From positions 6,648 to 70,647 of the forward strand of contig JAQTRU010000001.1 in assembly GCA_028711655.1 (NCBI GenBank): DNA of 64,000 nucleotides, written 5' to 3'. Positions within the stretch are counted from its first letter, which is position 1; each line of letters starts with the position of its first letter. Below the pieces are notes generated by a model. The model was not told where the DNA came from. It searched no databases and saw only the letters and a list, made by a program, of their open reading frames with translations. The stretch comes from Patescibacteria group bacterium (GTDB lineage Bacteria > Patescibacteriota > Patescibacteriia > Patescibacteriales > JAQTRU01). A program made the translations under genes and the position numbers. Of the stretch, positions 26,990-38,131 are shown piece by piece.

Positions 26990-28603
<1,614 letters not shown>

Positions 28604-28718
28604 TCTAGGGAGATATTCGGTGAAAAAAACGAATGTGTCGACCTACTTAAATTTTTATAAAATCTAGGTGGGAAATTGGCGCCTGCTAGCTTTGAAATTT
28701 TGATCATCAAATAAAAAA

Positions 28719-28808: not shown

Positions 28809-29804
28809 CTAATTAATCCCCATTCTCTCTTTTACTCTTCTTAAAGTTTCATCCGCAATCGGCTTAACTTTCTTTGCCCCGTCTTCCATGATTTTTTTCG
28901 CTTCTTTATCACTAATTATTTTATACCTTTCCTGGAAATCTGCCAAGAACTTCTTTACCACTTCGGCCAAATCTTTTTTAAAGTCGCCGTATCCCTTGCC
29001 CCGGTATTTAGCTTCCAGTTTTTTTATTGGCTCATCAGAGAGTAAAGAATAAATAGTCAACAGATTAGAAATTGCCGGCTTGCTTTTTGGGTCATATTTA
29101 ATTTCCGAACCGGAATCAGTTACGGCCTTCATAATTTTTTTAGCCGCCGCTTCCGGATTATCCGTTAAGCCAATAAAATTATATTCGCTTTCTGCGCTCT
29201 TGCTCATTTTCTTGCTCGGGTCGTCCAGGCCCATAATCCGCGCTCCTTCTTTTCTAATAACCACTTCCGGAATTTTAAACGTTTCACCGAATTGCGAATT
29301 AAACCTACGCCCTAAAGTCCGACAAAGTTCAACATGCTGGGCCTGGTCTTCTCCAACCGGCACGGCATCGGTATTATAAAGTAAAATATCCGAAGCCATT
29401 AAAACCGGGTAATCAAAAAGGCCGATCCCAACATTTTCCTGTCCTTCTCCGGCCTTATCTTTAAACTGGGTCATTTTATTTAAATCGGAAATCCGGGCTA
29501 CGCAATTTAAGATCCAAGTTAATTCCGTGTGCGCGCTAATATCAGACTGCTGGAAAATAATTGATTTTTTCGGGTCAATGCCGGACGCTAAATAAATTTT
29601 AGCCACTTCTATAATTTTTTTCTTTAGCGCTTCTGGGTCCTGCTTAACCGTAATGGCGTGATAATCAACCACGCAAAAAATGCATTGATTTTTCTCCTGC
29701 ATTACCACCCACTGGGCAATCGCGCCCAGATAATTGCCAAGATGCAGATTGCCGCTGGGTTGGACCCCGGAAAAGACTATAGGTTTATTAAGCATAATTA
29801 TCAA
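28809..29804 (-). CDS. trpS: Tryptophanyl-tRNA synthetase
   Basis: GNLHLGNYLGA (HIGH region) and KMSKS. Confidence 0.9.
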   Translation of the reverse strand: MIIMLNKPIVFSGVQPSGNLHLGNYLGAIAQWVVMQEKNQCIFCVVDYHAITVKQDPEALKKKIIEVAKIYLASGIDPKKSIIFQQSDISAHTELTWILNCVARISDLNKMTQFKDKAGEGQENVGIGLFDYPVLMASDILLYNTDAVPVGEDQAQHVELCRTLGRRFNSQFGETFKIPEVVIRKEGARIMGLDDPSKKMSKSAESEYNFIGLTDNPEAAAKKIMKAVTDSGSEIKYDPKSKPAISNLLTIYSLLSDEPIKKLEAKYRGKGYGDFKKDLAEVVKKFLADFQERYKIISDKEAKKIMEDGAKKVKPIADETLRRVKERMGIN

Positions 29805-29807
29805 ATT

Positions 29808-29852
29808 ATATAGTATTCGTATATTCGTAAATAATTCGTAATTCGTAGGAAT
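29808..29852. repeat. attcgta element copy upstream of trpS, ~36-nt near-identical to 37806-37843
   Basis: tattcgtatattcgtaaataattcgtaattcgtagg. Confidence 0.75.
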
Positions 29853-29894
29853 ATACTATTATTGTAATTTAATTATTGGTTTTAAGCAAGAAAA

Positions 29895-29930
29895 AGGTGG
29901 AGACAAGACGGCATCTCGTCTCCACCTAAA
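29895..29930 (-). terminator. Terminator of the small zinc-ribbon gene pair
   Basis: GGTGGAGACaagacggcatctcGTCTCCACC followed by T5 on the minus strand. Confidence 0.6.
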
Positions 29931-29934
29931 ACCA

Positions 29935-30072
29935 TTACTGCCTGCCGTTCCGTTTTTGGAACTGGCTCTTTCTAGCGCTTTTGTCGCATTTCGGACAACG
30001 CTTTACGGTTTTGCCGCCGGGCAAATAGAACGTTTGAATTCTTTCACCATGAACACTGCATTTCTTAGCCAT
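29935..30072 (-). CDS. Small zinc-ribbon protein (45 aa), not in the ORF track
   Basis: MAKKCSVHGERIQTFYLPGGKTVKRCPKCDKSARKSQFQKRNGRQ with SD GGAGAAGG. Coordinates +/-1. Confidence 0.5.
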   Translation of the reverse strand: MAKKCSVHGERIQTFYLPGGKTVKRCPKCDKSARKSQFQKRNGRQ

Positions 30073-30087
30073 AAATCCTTCTCCTAA

Positions 30088-30291
30088 TTACCCATTACAA
30101 AAACCACCTGATGGTGAAGAACCAGACTCCCCGCTTGTACCACCTACAGGAGTGGTAAATCCGAAACCAACGGAATTACGCGGTTTATCTCTTCCTGTAC
30201 TTGTCTCTTTCTTTTGCCCGCATACCAAACAAACGCCGTCAATGACTCTACCGCCGCAACCAGGTTTAGAACAAATTAATTCTTCAGCCAT
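30088..30291 (-). CDS. Small zinc-ribbon protein with Gly/Ser-rich tail (start at MAEEL)
   Basis: MAEELICSKPGCGGRVIDGVCLVCGQKK... with SD GGAGG. Confidence 0.5.
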   Translation of the reverse strand: MAEELICSKPGCGGRVIDGVCLVCGQKKETSTGRDKPRNSVGFGFTTPVGGTSGESGSSPSGGFCNG

Positions 30292-30369
30292 GATAGGCCT
30301 CCATGTTAAGAATGAACAATTAAATATACAATGAATGAACAATTCCTTTCCGCATTAGTCCGCATCAGT

Positions 30370-30690
30370 CTGTATTAGTCCGTGAAAAGAAAAAAGCTTC
30401 CCATCTCTTAAGCATAACTAAATCATGCTCAAGGGACGAAAAGCTTTTGCTTTACGCGGTACCACCCCTTTTCCCGCCAAACTTTTGCGAACAAAACTTA
30501 GGCGGGCACTTTTACTGACTCTGACCCCTCTCGACAAGCTCAGGGCGACATCAGTTAGCCCATGATTACGGAGGCAACCGGGTCTTCACTCTCGCAAAAA
30601 CCACCCTTCCGCCAATTGACGGATAATTCAGGCCCAACCCCCTGCAAAAAAGCAGAGGACCTGAATAGGTTTTATTGTTTTTAAACTACT
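30370..30690 (-). ncRNA. Candidate structured RNA or long structured 5' leader upstream of the zinc-ribbon genes; identity unresolved
   Basis: ~300-nt GC-rich island with no ORF and multiple stems (CCTCTGC-T6-GCAGGGG; GGCGGGAAAAGGGGTGGTACCGCG...). A P4-like GAAGACCCGGTTGCC / GGCAACCGGGTCTTC segment is ambiguous for RNase P. Confidence 0.3.
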
Positions 30691-30743
30691 AAATACAGAA
30701 TAACATAATAAAAAATTCTATCAAATAACTGGGTTTATTTATC

Positions 30744-31331
30744 CTATTTTGCCTCCTCTAATTGATACCACTTAACATGATAATGAATTTTCTCTTCCTG
30801 GCCGTCCGGAATTTTATTTATATTAGGAATTCTAGAATCCGGACTATTTTCTCGATACACTACCTTAAGACTATTACCGATAGTTCCTTCAACTACCAAC
30901 AACATAGATTTCTCTATCCATCTACTAAATTTTTTTTCGTCTTCTTCTAAATCCTGTCTTGCTTTCTTCAGTCCATCTTCACCTAATCCCCCTCCATATT
31001 TTTTCTCAACATCAATTAAAGTTGGCCTTTGCTTTTTTTCTCTATCTTCTCGCGGAAACACTACTAATTTGTCAAGTTCTCCCATGTCTTTAAAAAAACC
31101 AAAAAACCGAACTTCTGTCTCGGGGTCTATTTTTTCAGACGCTGAAGGAATTACCTTTAAACCTCCTTCGGGATCAATCTTAGCCCTATCTACTTTACCG
31201 TCAGATATAATAAACGCGCCCTCCCTCCCGGGTATTTCAAATAAAGCCTCGGAATAATTAGGAATATCCTTTATTTTATATTTTTTGCCAACTTCCAATG
31301 GCGCGGGCATTTGGTTTGGTTGTTCTTTCAT
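30744..31331 (-). CDS. Hypothetical cytoplasmic protein, Lys/Glu-rich
   Basis: 195-aa ORF with no recognisable motif. Confidence 0.4.
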   Translation of the reverse strand: MKEQPNQMPAPLEVGKKYKIKDIPNYSEALFEIPGREGAFIISDGKVDRAKIDPEGGLKVIPSASEKIDPETEVRFFGFFKDMGELDKLVVFPREDREKKQRPTLIDVEKKYGGGLGEDGLKKARQDLEEDEKKFSRWIEKSMLLVVEGTIGNSLKVVYRENSPDSRIPNINKIPDGQEEKIHYHVKWYQLEEAK

Positions 31332-31515: not shown

Positions 31516-32583
31516 TCACCCGCGCACACAACGAACATAGAGGTTGTAGATTTTGCCGGTGTAGTCCACGAGGCCGTAGCCGAAACTCACGCCCCAGGCG
31601 CTGGTGGTATTGTGAACAACGGTAGTAGAAGACCAATAATAAGTGTTGCTGCCGGGGTTGGTATTAGGGAAATAAGTGGTATTGATGGCTGGCAGAGAAT
31701 TCTGATAATTCACGATGCTCATTAGCTCTTTTACATTTGGCAATCTCCAATTATTATAACCACCAAAAATCAAATTTTGGCATTGGCTTAGAGCATTTTC
31801 CCAGTTAACATTATTGACGTATCCGGCGCAGTTGGTTGTTGAAGTATCCGGCTCCGTGCATTTCTTCCACATCAAACCCGTGCAGTTATCAGTTATAGTA
31901 CCGTTGCCATTGTCTGTGAAAGAAGGATTGCAGGTGGAAGGACTGTTGGCAGAGGTATAATCATTATCTTCGCCATAAGTTGCGGTATAGCTTGAAGTCT
32001 GACCGGTATCAGGAAGAGTTTTAATCCCTGTATAAATCCCTGCCAGGCCAAATATGGTAACTCCGCTTTTAATATTGCCGGCGGCTAAGTCAGTATCTAA
32101 GGCGCTCTTGCTAGTTTGGTTAATAAAGCATTTTCCGCCATTGTTATCAGTACAATCGGTCAGGGTATTACTAGCCAAATCAACTAGATTATTCCAGTTA
32201 GCTTCGGTTAAGGTATCACTAGAAGCTGTAGCTCCGGTAGCCTCGGTATCGCAGTTGCTGCCGCATTTATTGTGAATTTCATTAACAAAAGTATTCCAAT
32301 TACTTTGGCTAAGCTGGCCTGAATCATTAGTTTTAGCGTCATTCCAGGCTGCGTAGACATAAGTAGCGCCAATGGCTAGGAATATTCCGAAAATTAGATA
32401 AATCAGCCGGGAAGAAATAAATCCCGCACCTTTCAGCAGAGCATCAAACCTCGCCGAAAGAATTTTGCCTAAATCCTTCATCCCCGCAACAAAGCTACGA
32501 AATATTAAGGAAAGGTGCGGGATAAATTTTAATGTTTTTTTAAAAATGTTTTTCATATTTTTATTGAGATCGTAGTACCCCAA
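31516..32583 (-). CDS. Secreted/anchored Cys-rich protein with C-terminal DUF1566 (Lcl/C-type-lectin-like) domain
   Basis: N-terminal TM anchor, then WRLPNVKELMSI...YWSSTT...AWGVSFGYG...VRCVRG. The last ~45 aa are N/T/Y/S-rich. Confidence 0.6.
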   Translation of the reverse strand: MGYYDLNKNMKNIFKKTLKFIPHLSLIFRSFVAGMKDLGKILSARFDALLKGAGFISSRLIYLIFGIFLAIGATYVYAAWNDAKTNDSGQLSQSNWNTFVNEIHNKCGSNCDTEATGATASSDTLTEANWNNLVDLASNTLTDCTDNNGGKCFINQTSKSALDTDLAAGNIKSGVTIFGLAGIYTGIKTLPDTGQTSSYTATYGEDNDYTSANSPSTCNPSFTDNGNGTITDNCTGLMWKKCTEPDTSTTNCAGYVNNVNWENALSQCQNLIFGGYNNWRLPNVKELMSIVNYQNSLPAINTTYFPNTNPGSNTYYWSSTTVVHNTTSAWGVSFGYGLVDYTGKIYNLYVRCVRG

Positions 32584-32609: not shown

Positions 32610-33458
32610 TTAATAAATATAACACACGCATGTTGCCCATGATTCATAATTATTTCTGTAACAACCAACACGATTATCTCCGCCACCAGTATATACTGTG
32701 AAATCGTTTCCACCAGTATTACATGTGTTGCTACAAACAGTCCCAACAGTGCATGAATAATCTGAAGTACAATCACTGGGATAGCATTTAACTCCTGTAG
32801 ATGCTAAAGTACCAGCAACCCCAAAAATAGTTACTCCACTTTTTATATTTCCAACAGCCAAATCACTATCCATAGCGGAAAAAGTGGAAGTGTTCATATA
32901 GCAATAACCATTATTGCTAGCGGCCGAACAGGCATTGGCATTAACGTATTTAGCCGTATCATCAACATAACAATTAGTTTTGGTGGTCGTAGTTGAATCA
33001 GCGCATTCCGAGCCAAAAGCATAATAGCTGTTGTCAGTCGGAACAAAACATTGGTTTTCTTTAGCTTCATTACATAAATCAGTCGTCAGATAGCGGGCAG
33101 TAGTATCAACATAGCAGTTTGTTTGGGTGGTGGTAGTTGATTCTCCGCATTCCGTAGAATACCACTCTCCGGCCGTAGTCATCCGATTGGTAATATATTC
33201 CAGCCGTTCTACGATAGAGCCATCTTTATTGGTTGCCACCAAGGACGAGTCAAAATCATTATTCGCGTTGTTGGCGCCCAAAATATTCTGGGTAAAATCC
33301 TGGTCCGAATCCGTTGGCCCGGCGCTTGGTTCAACAAAAGCGGCGTAAACATAAACGGTAACAACCGCGGTTAAGGTTAAAATAACCGTAGTAATTATGC
33401 GCCAGCCAATTCTTCCTAGATAGTCATTCAGTTTGGTTTTTAAGATTTGGTTATCCAT
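32610..33458 (-). CDS. Paralogous secreted Cys-rich protein (shares the TM/SAGPTDSDQDF N-module and the DLAxGNIKSGVTIFG motif)
   Basis: MDSDLAVGNIKSGVTIFGVAG vs LDTDLAAGNIKSGVTIFGLAG in the neighbour; more than 25 Cys. Confidence 0.55.
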   Translation of the reverse strand: MDNQILKTKLNDYLGRIGWRIITTVILTLTAVVTVYVYAAFVEPSAGPTDSDQDFTQNILGANNANNDFDSSLVATNKDGSIVERLEYITNRMTTAGEWYSTECGESTTTTQTNCYVDTTARYLTTDLCNEAKENQCFVPTDNSYYAFGSECADSTTTTKTNCYVDDTAKYVNANACSAASNNGYCYMNTSTFSAMDSDLAVGNIKSGVTIFGVAGTLASTGVKCYPSDCTSDYSCTVGTVCSNTCNTGGNDFTVYTGGGDNRVGCYRNNYESWATCVCYIY

Positions 33459-37743: not shown

Positions 37744-37845
37744 CCCTACGAATTACGAATATATACGAATGTACGAATTCCCCAATAAACGCCTTAATTT
37801 AATATTCGTATATTCGTAACGAATTCGTAATTCGTAGAATAAAAA
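37744..37845. repeat. attcgta palindromic element upstream of hup
   Basis: cctacgaattacgaatatatacgaatgtacgaattcc ... tattcgtatattcgtaacgaattcgtaattcgtag. Confidence 0.75.
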
Positions 37846-37846
37846 T

Positions 37847-38131
37847 ATGAATAAGGCAGGATTAATTGAAAAAATAGCCGAAGCCGCGGCCGTAACGAAA
37901 AAACAGGCTGAGGACATGATTGAAACTTTGGTAAAAACCATTGTCTCCGAATTAAAATCCGGGGGCGAGGTGACCATTGCCGGTTTTGGCACGTTTCTGG
38001 CCAGAACCCGCCACGCCCGGGGCGGTGTTAATCCGCAGAAACCGACGGAAAGAATTAAAATCCCTGAAGTAAAAGTGGCAAAATTCAAAACCGGAAAAAA
38101 TTTAAAGGACGCTTTAAAAGGCAAAATATAA
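37847..38131 (+). CDS. hup: HU-family DNA-binding protein
   Basis: MNKAGLIEKIAE ... GFGTFLARTRHARGGVNPQ. Confidence 0.9.
   Translation: MNKAGLIEKIAEAAAVTKKQAEDMIETLVKTIVSELKSGGEVTIAGFGTFLARTRHARGGVNPQKPTERIKIPEVKVAKFKTGKNLKDALKGKI

Follow-up and report, generated by a model that had tools for sequence, protein, structure and literature searches.

A probable tRNA-Trp-specific T-box riboswitch with a short Stem I in the leader of two zinc-ribbon genes of a Patescibacteria group bacterium

The zinc-ribbon locus and its leader

The locus lies in a 64,000-nt stretch of DNA from a Patescibacteria group bacterium (assembly GCA_028711655.1, contig JAQTRU010000001.1, positions 6,648 to 70,647), hereafter called the window. 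On the minus strand of the window, a GC-rich island is followed by two small zinc-ribbon genes and, further downstream, by trpS (Table 1). The island truly is a structured RNA, a minus-strand leader that regulates in cis. It spans about 305 nt (~30690..30385) and is very probably a transcription-attenuating T-box riboswitch that is specific for tRNA-Trp and lacks the platform of Stem I.

The GC content of positions 30400-30649 is 0.49-0.55 in 150-nt windows, compared with 0.27-0.39 in both flanks, and the island is overlapped only by mechanical open reading frames (ORFs) of 30-46 aa. The minus strand of the island folds with -121.8 kcal/mol, whereas dinucleotide shuffles give -93.2 +/- 5.4 kcal/mol (z = -5.3), and none of 100 shuffles is as good. 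The fold of the plus strand is weaker (-88.6 kcal/mol, z = -4.1). The initial annotation had described the same picture, namely an ORF-free island with a GC content above that of its flanks and multiple stems, placed on the minus strand before the MAEEL zinc-ribbon gene and its Shine-Dalgarno (SD) sequence. Its statement that no T-run occurs ahead of the downstream genes does not hold for the minus strand, where the reported interval includes the riboswitch terminator, a 22-bp hairpin (30446..30394) with the U tract UUUUUUCUUUU (30395..30385) directly behind it.

Table 1. Features of the leader and the downstream genes, all on the minus strand
Feature	Position	Description	Basis
Promoter-like site	30724..30697	TTGATA-16-TATTCT with TG extension	Consensus scan, 9/12 matches
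Stem I	30666..30626	Short, ~41 nt	Read from sequence
Stem I lower helix	30666..30660 / 30632..30626	AUUCAGG / CCUGAAU	
Stem I 5' nucleotide	30659	Single U	
Stem I upper helix	30658..30639	CCUCUGC/GCAGGGG, 7 bp, U6 loop	
Stem I 3' bulge	30638..30633	GUUGGG	
Specifier codon	30636..30634	UGG (Trp), then invariant G at 30633	
Hairpin B	30622..30609	CCGUC-AAUU-GGCGG, between Stem I and Stem II; optional element	
Stem II	30602..30581	GGUUUU/AAGACC helix; conserved UGC...GUG internal or terminal loop	RF00230 alignment and covariation
Stem IIA	30580..30578 / 30571..30569	CGG / CCG	
Stem IIB	30575..30572 / 30561..30558	GCCU / GGGC	
IIA/B pseudoknot	30580..30558	Contains F-box-like CCGUAA, in place of CCGUCA/CCGUUA	
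Hairpin X	30555..30514	Extra hairpin between pseudoknot and Stem III; tip CCCUGAGCUUGUCGAGAGG, 30545..30527	
Stem III 5' flank	30511..30507	AAGUG	
Stem III	30506..30473		RF00230 alignment, RNAfold
Stem III 3' flank	30472..30469	AAAA	
Antiterminator	30468..30432	A1 GGGG/CCCU, A2 GCGUA...UUCGU	
T-box bulge	30464..30458	UGGUACC	
Intrinsic terminator	30446..30394, U tract to 30385	22-bp hairpin, then UUUUUUCUUUU (U6CU4)	
Gene 1	30291..30088	67-aa Cys4 zinc-ribbon protein (MAEEL...); SD GGAGG, 30302..30298	
Gene 2	30072..29935	45-aa zinc-ribbon protein (MAKKCSVHGE...)	
Intrinsic terminator of zinc-ribbon unit	29927..29895	15-bp stem, then UUUUUCUU	
trpS	28809..29795	Next gene but two after the leader	Pfam tRNA-synt_1b, 5.5e-79

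Identification of a T-box core

An Rfam scan of the whole window at gathering thresholds returned only one 16S gene and five tRNAs. A second, permissive scan (E<=10) of positions 30200-30800 yielded a single significant match, the T-box leader family RF00230, at 30628..30429 of the minus strand with an E-value of 7.5e-8 and a score of 41.7 bits. The alignment contains a near-perfect T-box core (AAAAGGGGUGGUACCGCG...UUCGUCCC) together with Stem III and the Stem II/IIA region. The 88 positions of Stem I in the model, by contrast with this core, collapse to 10 nt in the window. The score is low because this part of the model is almost absent. Given the E-value, the sub-threshold score should be put down to the missing Stem I and does not speak against homology. 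The sub-threshold match and the comparative analysis described below together make the T-box assignment firm, and the RNA does not represent a new class. The window contains one T-box core, which is co-oriented with the downstream genes and trpS.

The Rfam scan and the comparative alignment had both been proposed in the initial annotation. The former gave only the sub-threshold T-box match, and the latter a conserved class of leaders with strong covariation. The absence of any Rfam match and of conservation, which had been named as counting against a structured RNA, was thus not found.

Antiterminator and terminator

The antiterminator fits the T-box consensus GGGUGGUACCGCG...CGUCCC. The 7-nt UGGN-ACC bulge is located between helices A1 and A2 (GGGG-UGGUACC-GCG...CGU-CCCU), for which 100% and 95% of the alignment cells are paired, respectively. 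The terminator and the antiterminator are mutually exclusive, with the CGUCCC strand common to both. In the window, the terminator has a predicted energy of -28.9 kcal/mol, versus -10.0 kcal/mol for the antiterminator alone. This calculated asymmetry is the usual T-box arrangement, in which tRNA would be needed to tip the balance. The arrangement recurs in 28 of 28 leaders. In each of these, a terminator hairpin (-24 to -37 kcal/mol) shares sequence with the antiterminator 3' strand, and at least four U come directly after it.

A platform-less short Stem I has so far been found mainly in translational T-boxes (PMC7583486), which would favor a switch that sequesters the SD sequence, like the actinobacterial ileS T-boxes. 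The competing helix in the present leader is instead the 22-bp hairpin with its U6CU4 tract, in the arrangement seen in all 28 leaders, and the sequestrator that masks the SD in class II T-boxes is not found. The SD of ORF1 (30302..30298) lies ~85 nt beyond the switch and takes part in neither alternative helix, so control is transcriptional rather than translational. A translational T-box is therefore very unlikely.

Homologous leaders and covariation

The class was compared in about 27 leaders homologous to that of the window, from Patescibacteria genomes and metagenomes. Eighty loci with a related TrpRS, taken from metagenome-assembled genomes of Patescibacteria, Falkowbacteria, and Parcubacteria, were compared. 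A T-box core is present upstream on the same strand in 10 of the 80 trpS loci. An nhmmer search with the window leader recovered those 10 loci (L069 at 2.6e-49 and L062 at 5e-15, for example) and a partial match in L042. The leader also occurs in L201-L206, which were found via the ORF1 homologue P0002. In addition, metagenomes were scanned with the IIA motif CCGGNNNNCTCCGTAAYCA as the pattern. A T-box core lies downstream in 21 of 120 among the matches listed, which gives at least 21 loci. The pattern itself is unspecific, as the other 99 of the 120 matches listed have no T-box core downstream. Counting the 10 of 80 trpS loci, the window, L201-L206, and the at least 21 metagenome loci, the class appears widespread.

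The partial match in L042 (~1375-1560) is located upstream of trpB. It comprises Stem I with UGG, Stem II, and IIA/B, and contains no recognizable T-box core. A different GC-rich hairpin and a U tract stand in its place. The L042 leader may be a degenerate or rewired switch.

For the covariation analysis, leaders were pruned to helix ends at equal length, with AAAA in place of variable loops and distal extensions. Pairing partners were anchored on the invariant motifs U-CC, UGGG, UGC/GUG, CGG-N6-CCG, and CG[UC]CC. The set comprises 26 distinct sequences and 31 pairs and was compared with 500 column shuffles; it is a pruned alignment rather than a class-specific covariance model. Standard pairs occupy 98.0% of the cells, a share that falls to 83.7% in column shuffles and to 35-60% if the pairing partners are displaced by 1-3 columns. 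Double changes occur in 18 of the 31 pairs, including pairs of the IIA/B pseudoknot, versus 11.7 in shuffles. The covariation score is 0.51, versus 0.21 in shuffles, and none of the 500 shuffles reaches any of these measures. By helix, the compensatory pairs number 6/6 in the lower helix of Stem I, 2/3 at the base of its upper helix, 5/6 in Stem II (98.7% of cells paired), 2/4 in pseudoknot helix IIB (all cells paired), 1/4 in A1, and 2/5 in A2.

The genes behind these leaders give a Trp-related context and include the following. The leader is followed by trpB and then trpS in L056-L059, L062, and L064, by trpB2 in L013, L108, and L142, by trpA with trpB2 in L082, and by a DAHP synthase gene in L176. 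In L069, L006, L095, L200, and L201, trpS follows, with a small zinc-ribbon gene ahead of it.

Two small, basic, Cys-rich proteins are encoded immediately downstream of the window leader, and the initial annotation had considered that they might bind it, as ribosomal proteins bind their own leaders. The leader does precede the zinc-ribbon genes, as proposed there. Their products, however, match no ribosomal or RNA-binding family, and the same class of leader occurs before trpB, trpB2, trpS, and the DAHP synthase gene with no zinc-ribbon gene in between. The conserved RNA therefore cannot be a site dedicated to binding these zinc-ribbon proteins. The T-box core and the UGG specifier explain the conservation, and autoregulation by the zinc-ribbon proteins is very unlikely.

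Stem I and the specifier codon

Transcription is predicted to start near 30690, downstream of a promoter-like site. A TTGACA/TATTAT site is present in L201 at the same distance upstream of Stem I. Every full-length homologous leader contains the same short Stem I hairpin with UGG in its 3' bulge. The upper helix varies freely in length among relatives and is absent in L156.

The UGG triplet is invariant in 26 of 26 aligned leaders, while the preceding bases vary (GU-, A-U-, G-, GC-). The bulge reads GUUGGG, AUUGGG, GUGGG, or GCUGGG, in which only UGG and the following G are constant. The codon agrees with the amino acid of the genes under control, and the base after it is a purine. The first genes of the window itself are the zinc-ribbon ORFs, with trpS next. 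The Trp-related genes downstream in relatives, along with the invariant UGG, fix the specificity as tRNA-Trp. The sensed ligand would accordingly be uncharged tRNA-Trp, as read from the sequence, and not the downstream proteins.

Other readings of the bulge were rejected. The frames GUU and UUG are lost in the GUGGG and GCUGGG variants. In the frame GGG, a pyrimidine would come next, and a GGG codon does not fit the Trp gene context. The RF00230 alignment places the base of Stem I at hairpin B (30622..30609), which was also rejected, as hairpin B is missing in about one third of the class. Even L069 and L201, the closest relatives, do not retain its UUGG, whereas the hairpin at 30666..30626 with its UGG bulge is universal.

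The most reduced form seen in the class is the leader of L156 (minus strand, ~510-712). It carries UGG in an apical loop (GCGGG-UAGUUGGG-CCCGC) and has neither the upper helix of Stem I nor Stem III.

The hairpin at 30666..30626 might alternatively terminate the upstream gene (30744..31331, minus strand), leaving a decaying T-box relic devoid of Stem I. The hairpin does lie ~80 nt past the stop codon of the upstream ORF, and a T-rich run follows it on the plus strand. On the minus strand, however, it is followed by UAUCCG rather than a U tract, and the promoter-like site intervenes between it and the upstream gene. The UGG hairpin is moreover conserved and covaries next to other neighbors, such as an opposite-strand clpP in L201 and tRNA genes in L056-L062. 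A terminator of the upstream gene is extremely unlikely.

Structure from hairpin B to Stem III

Hairpin B remains paired despite sequence change, with CCCGC/GCGGG in L069, UUCCAG/CUGGAA in L201, GACCG/CGGUC in L062, and further variants in others. It is absent from about one third of the class, for example from L082, L108, L117, and L142. The conserved UGC...GUG loop of Stem II is a candidate S-turn region. Stem II and the IIA/B pseudoknot with its F-box are backed by covariation in their helices, including the pseudoknot. Helix IIB pairs as GCCU/GGGC in the window, GCCU/AGGC in L201, UCCU/AGGA in most leaders, and AGCU/AGCU in L058.

Hairpin X is an insertion relative to the RF00230 model and is predicted by RNAfold in 28 of 28 leaders. 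Its basal helix covaries (ACUGA/UCAGU, AGUGU/ACACU, GACCU/AGGUU, GGCGU/GCGCU). The motif CCCUGAGC-N3-4-GUCGARRGG is located at the tip of hairpin X in the window (30527-30545, minus strand), L200, and L201, and at the tip of Stem I in L177, L181, and L017. It may form tandem sheared G.A pairs and is present as a single copy in the window. Its distribution suggests a small module that inserts at the tips of T-box helices.

Stem III is bordered by conserved purines (AAGUG-[30506..30473]-AAAA), in line with the RRRxG-Stem III-AA motif of T-boxes (PMC7583486). RNAfold predicts it in all 28 leaders but L156. Five leaders (L006, L095, L138, L176, and L201) share an insertion in the Stem III region, AUCCG...CGGAU followed by U7, which resembles a pause hairpin or a terminator lying within the leader.

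The initial annotation had quoted a segment resembling the P4 strands of RNase P RNA. The segment is present on the plus strand (GGAGGCAACCGGGTCTTC, 30570-30587), and its minus-strand counterpart GAAGACCCGGUUGCCUCC (30587..30570) covers Stem IIA and the adjoining 3' strand of Stem II. RNase P, tmRNA, SRP, 6S, and ribosomal-protein leaders had no Rfam match, either in the window at gathering thresholds or in 30200-30800 at E<=10 with permissive filters, and ARAGORN found no tmRNA. A trans-acting housekeeping or unknown RNA (RNase P RNA, tmRNA, SRP RNA, or 6S RNA) would account for a GC-rich, well-folded region and for the loose likeness of GAAGACCCGGUUGCC to the 3' strand of P4, a likeness not supported by the scan, but can practically be dismissed given these negative scans, the covarying T-box elements that account for every conserved block, and the attenuator that ends the RNA directly upstream of co-oriented genes.

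Proposed regulation

In a T-box riboswitch, a well-established type of regulator, uncharged tRNA pairs through its anticodon and its 3' NCCA and thereby stabilizes the antiterminator, which charged tRNA cannot do (PMC7583486). What is observed in the present class are the sequence elements and their covariation, helices that exclude each other, and, in relatives, a genomic context related to Trp. By analogy with the established mechanism, binding of tRNA, sensing of its charging state, and read-through would proceed as follows. Transcription would begin near 30690. The CCA anticodon of tRNA-Trp would pair with the UGG specifier in the 3' bulge of the short Stem I, and Stem II and the IIA/B pseudoknot would dock against the codon-anticodon helix. 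The 3' GCCA of an uncharged tRNA would then pair with UGGU of the T-box bulge and stabilize the weak antiterminator, allowing RNA polymerase to read through into the two zinc-ribbon genes. With charged tRNA, the far more stable terminator (30446..30394 and the U tract) would form and transcription would stop.

The UGGU sequence would face G73, the usual base of tRNA-Trp, in a G.U wobble pair. The contig of L122 carries a tRNA-Trp(CCA) with G73 together with a UGGU T-box. The wobble is reported for 46% of the Trp T-boxes in TBDB (PMC7778990).

Several observations weigh against a tRNA-Trp-specific transcriptional T-box. The RF00230 score, at 41.7 bits, falls far short of the family's gathering score (93); the 20 relatives scored also remain under it. 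A long Stem I with an interdigitated double T-loop platform, formed by an AG bulge and the distal loop, is not found; the 7-bp upper helix closed by U6 leaves no room for the distal platform. The base of Stem I likewise shows no evident K-turn. Sequence inspection found no candidates for tandem G.A pairs flanking the lower helix in the window (AACCU/AUUCAGG...CCUGAAU/UAUCC), while members without hairpin B carry GAUGAG, which could form a K-turn. The platform and the K-turn are regarded as near-universal in transcriptional T-boxes, and the platform is deemed essential (PMC7583486). The 64-kb window contains no tRNA-Trp gene. Finally, the alignment is pruned, and the 5' strand of Stem I, the 5' strand of Stem II with its TGC site, and the offset of IIB were anchored partly by pairing. 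These anchors somewhat inflate the percentage of paired cells, but not the double changes.

Regulated genes and the trpS neighborhood

Both zinc-ribbon ORFs are preceded by good SD sequences, and their products have no Pfam or NCBIfam family match. ORF1 has only three homologues, all unnamed, among 5.8 billion proteins. Identities of 76% (over 67% of the query) and 51% were recorded, and the homologue with 76% identity sits behind the same T-box leader in L201-L206. ORF2 is 68% identical to a 46-aa gene at the same position in L201. L201-L206 show the same order of T-box, first zinc-ribbon gene, second zinc-ribbon gene, terminator, and trpS with another upstream neighbor, and in L201 a different hairpin occupies the place of the window terminator at 29927..29895.

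In at least nine loci, a Trp T-box of the class is followed by small zinc-ribbon ORFs, which belong to at least two families. Cys-rich ORFs of 41-90 aa lie directly behind Trp T-boxes in L082, L142, L148, and L157, in L095, L200, L013, L006, and L069, and in the window. The two families are distinguished by a G[WF]G tail and by HNFCP...C-x-[EK]-C-K, and have no family assignment.

A stretch beginning TTGC(T/C)TAAAACCAATAATTAAATTACAATAATA is located behind the zinc-ribbon terminator and is nearly identical in the window (29858-29895, minus strand), L201 (~2905-2950), and L069 (~2880-2925), three loci that have otherwise diverged. It reads TTGCYT-17-TACAAT upstream of trpS and, from its sequence, is likely an independent trpS promoter. 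The switch appears dedicated to the two mini-proteins, and read-through into trpS would be partial at most.

Further features surround the unit. TACGAAT occurs four times in a row in the 5' region of trpS (29820-29846, minus strand). The array is identical in L201-L206 and absent from L069. The same heptamer recurs at 37746-37840, where four direct and four inverted copies lie immediately ahead of an HU-like gene (37847..38131, plus strand). The heptamer might serve as an operator or as an array for RNA-protein binding, or be a repeat particular to the lineage. A 16S rRNA gene (26991-28604, plus strand) stands alone, with no 23S or 5S in the 64-kb window, and converges on trpS. This arrangement of 16S and trpS is kept in L056, L058, L059, L062, and L069.

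On the other side of the leader, the 195-aa upstream ORF has nothing above threshold in Pfam and NCBIfam scans. Two adjacent minus-strand ORFs, 31516-32583 (355 aa) and 32610-33458 (282 aa), each have an N-terminal hydrophobic segment and share the motif NIKSGVTIFG[LV]AG. A homologue of the 282-aa ORF is located upstream of the T-box in L069.

Comparison with known T-box systems

Canonical transcriptional T-boxes (RF00230), such as those of B. subtilis tyrS and trpS and of glyQS, share most elements with the window leader. In both, the specifier is located in a side bulge of Stem I and is followed by a purine. Both contain Stem II, the IIA/B pseudoknot with an F-box (CCGUAA in the window), a purine-flanked Stem III, and the UGGN-ACC bulge. 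In both, an intrinsic terminator and an antiterminator compete, and the genes downstream encode aminoacyl-tRNA synthetases or serve amino-acid biosynthesis. The canonical Stem I spans ~90-100 nt. That of the window leader is only ~41 nt long, lacks the distal double T-loop platform, and shows no evident K-turn. The window leader also differs in having one nucleotide on the 5' side of the specifier loop, G rather than A after the codon, and two extra hairpins, B and X.

Short or ultrashort forms of Stem I characterize a translational, mostly actinobacterial class, and transcriptional T-boxes generally require a long, platform-bearing Stem I (PMC7583486). The same dichotomy is stated elsewhere (PMC11297988). 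The actinobacterial ileS T-boxes of M. tuberculosis and N. farcinica (PDB 6UFG and 6UFM, cited in PMC7583486) resemble the present class in lacking a platform for the tRNA elbow and in possessing a Stem II and IIA/B module, which is presumably needed to hold the anticodon. The L156 leader, with UGG in an apical loop, is also like their ultrashort type. The ileS T-boxes, in contrast, sequester the SD and recognize tRNA-Ile, whereas the present class is found in Patescibacteria, has a strong intrinsic terminator, is directed at tRNA-Trp, and usually presents the codon in a side bulge. Judged by its sequence, the class mixes both T-box types, combining a short Stem I with an intrinsic terminator.

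A long Stem I platform has been held necessary for sufficiently fast capture of tRNA in transcriptional T-boxes (PMC7583486; PMC11297988). Leaders that combine a platform-less Stem I with a classic terminator are natural test cases for this rule. They might, as a tentative and rather doubtful proposal, constitute a third T-box archetype that acts co-transcriptionally without an elbow platform, in which hairpin X and/or B or unusually slow transcription may compensate for the lost contact with the tRNA elbow. In the lineage of the window, the switch would then have been rewired to control nothing but the pair of zinc-ribbon mini-proteins. Within the searchable literature, we found no work that joins T-boxes with CPR or Patescibacteria. 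The class scores below the gathering threshold of Rfam, so annotation at that threshold misses T-box regulation in these reduced genomes.

The B. subtilis at operon (rtpA-ycbK) offers the nearest functional parallel for the regulated genes. There, a T-box sensing tRNA-Trp controls anti-TRAP, a zinc-binding protein of 53 aa. In both cases, the product directly under the Trp T-box is not an enzyme but a zinc-binding Cys4 protein of ~50-70 aa. Searches for anti-TRAP (RtpA) and TRAP (MtrB) by blastp and tblastn, with approximate query sequences, gave only chance-level hits in the window and the compared loci. The class points to families of zinc-ribbon mini-proteins in the tryptophan-limitation response of organisms that are mostly unable to make tryptophan. 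If the proposed archetype is real, these mini-proteins could be dedicated effectors of tryptophan starvation, functionally analogous but unrelated to the anti-TRAP protein of Bacillus.

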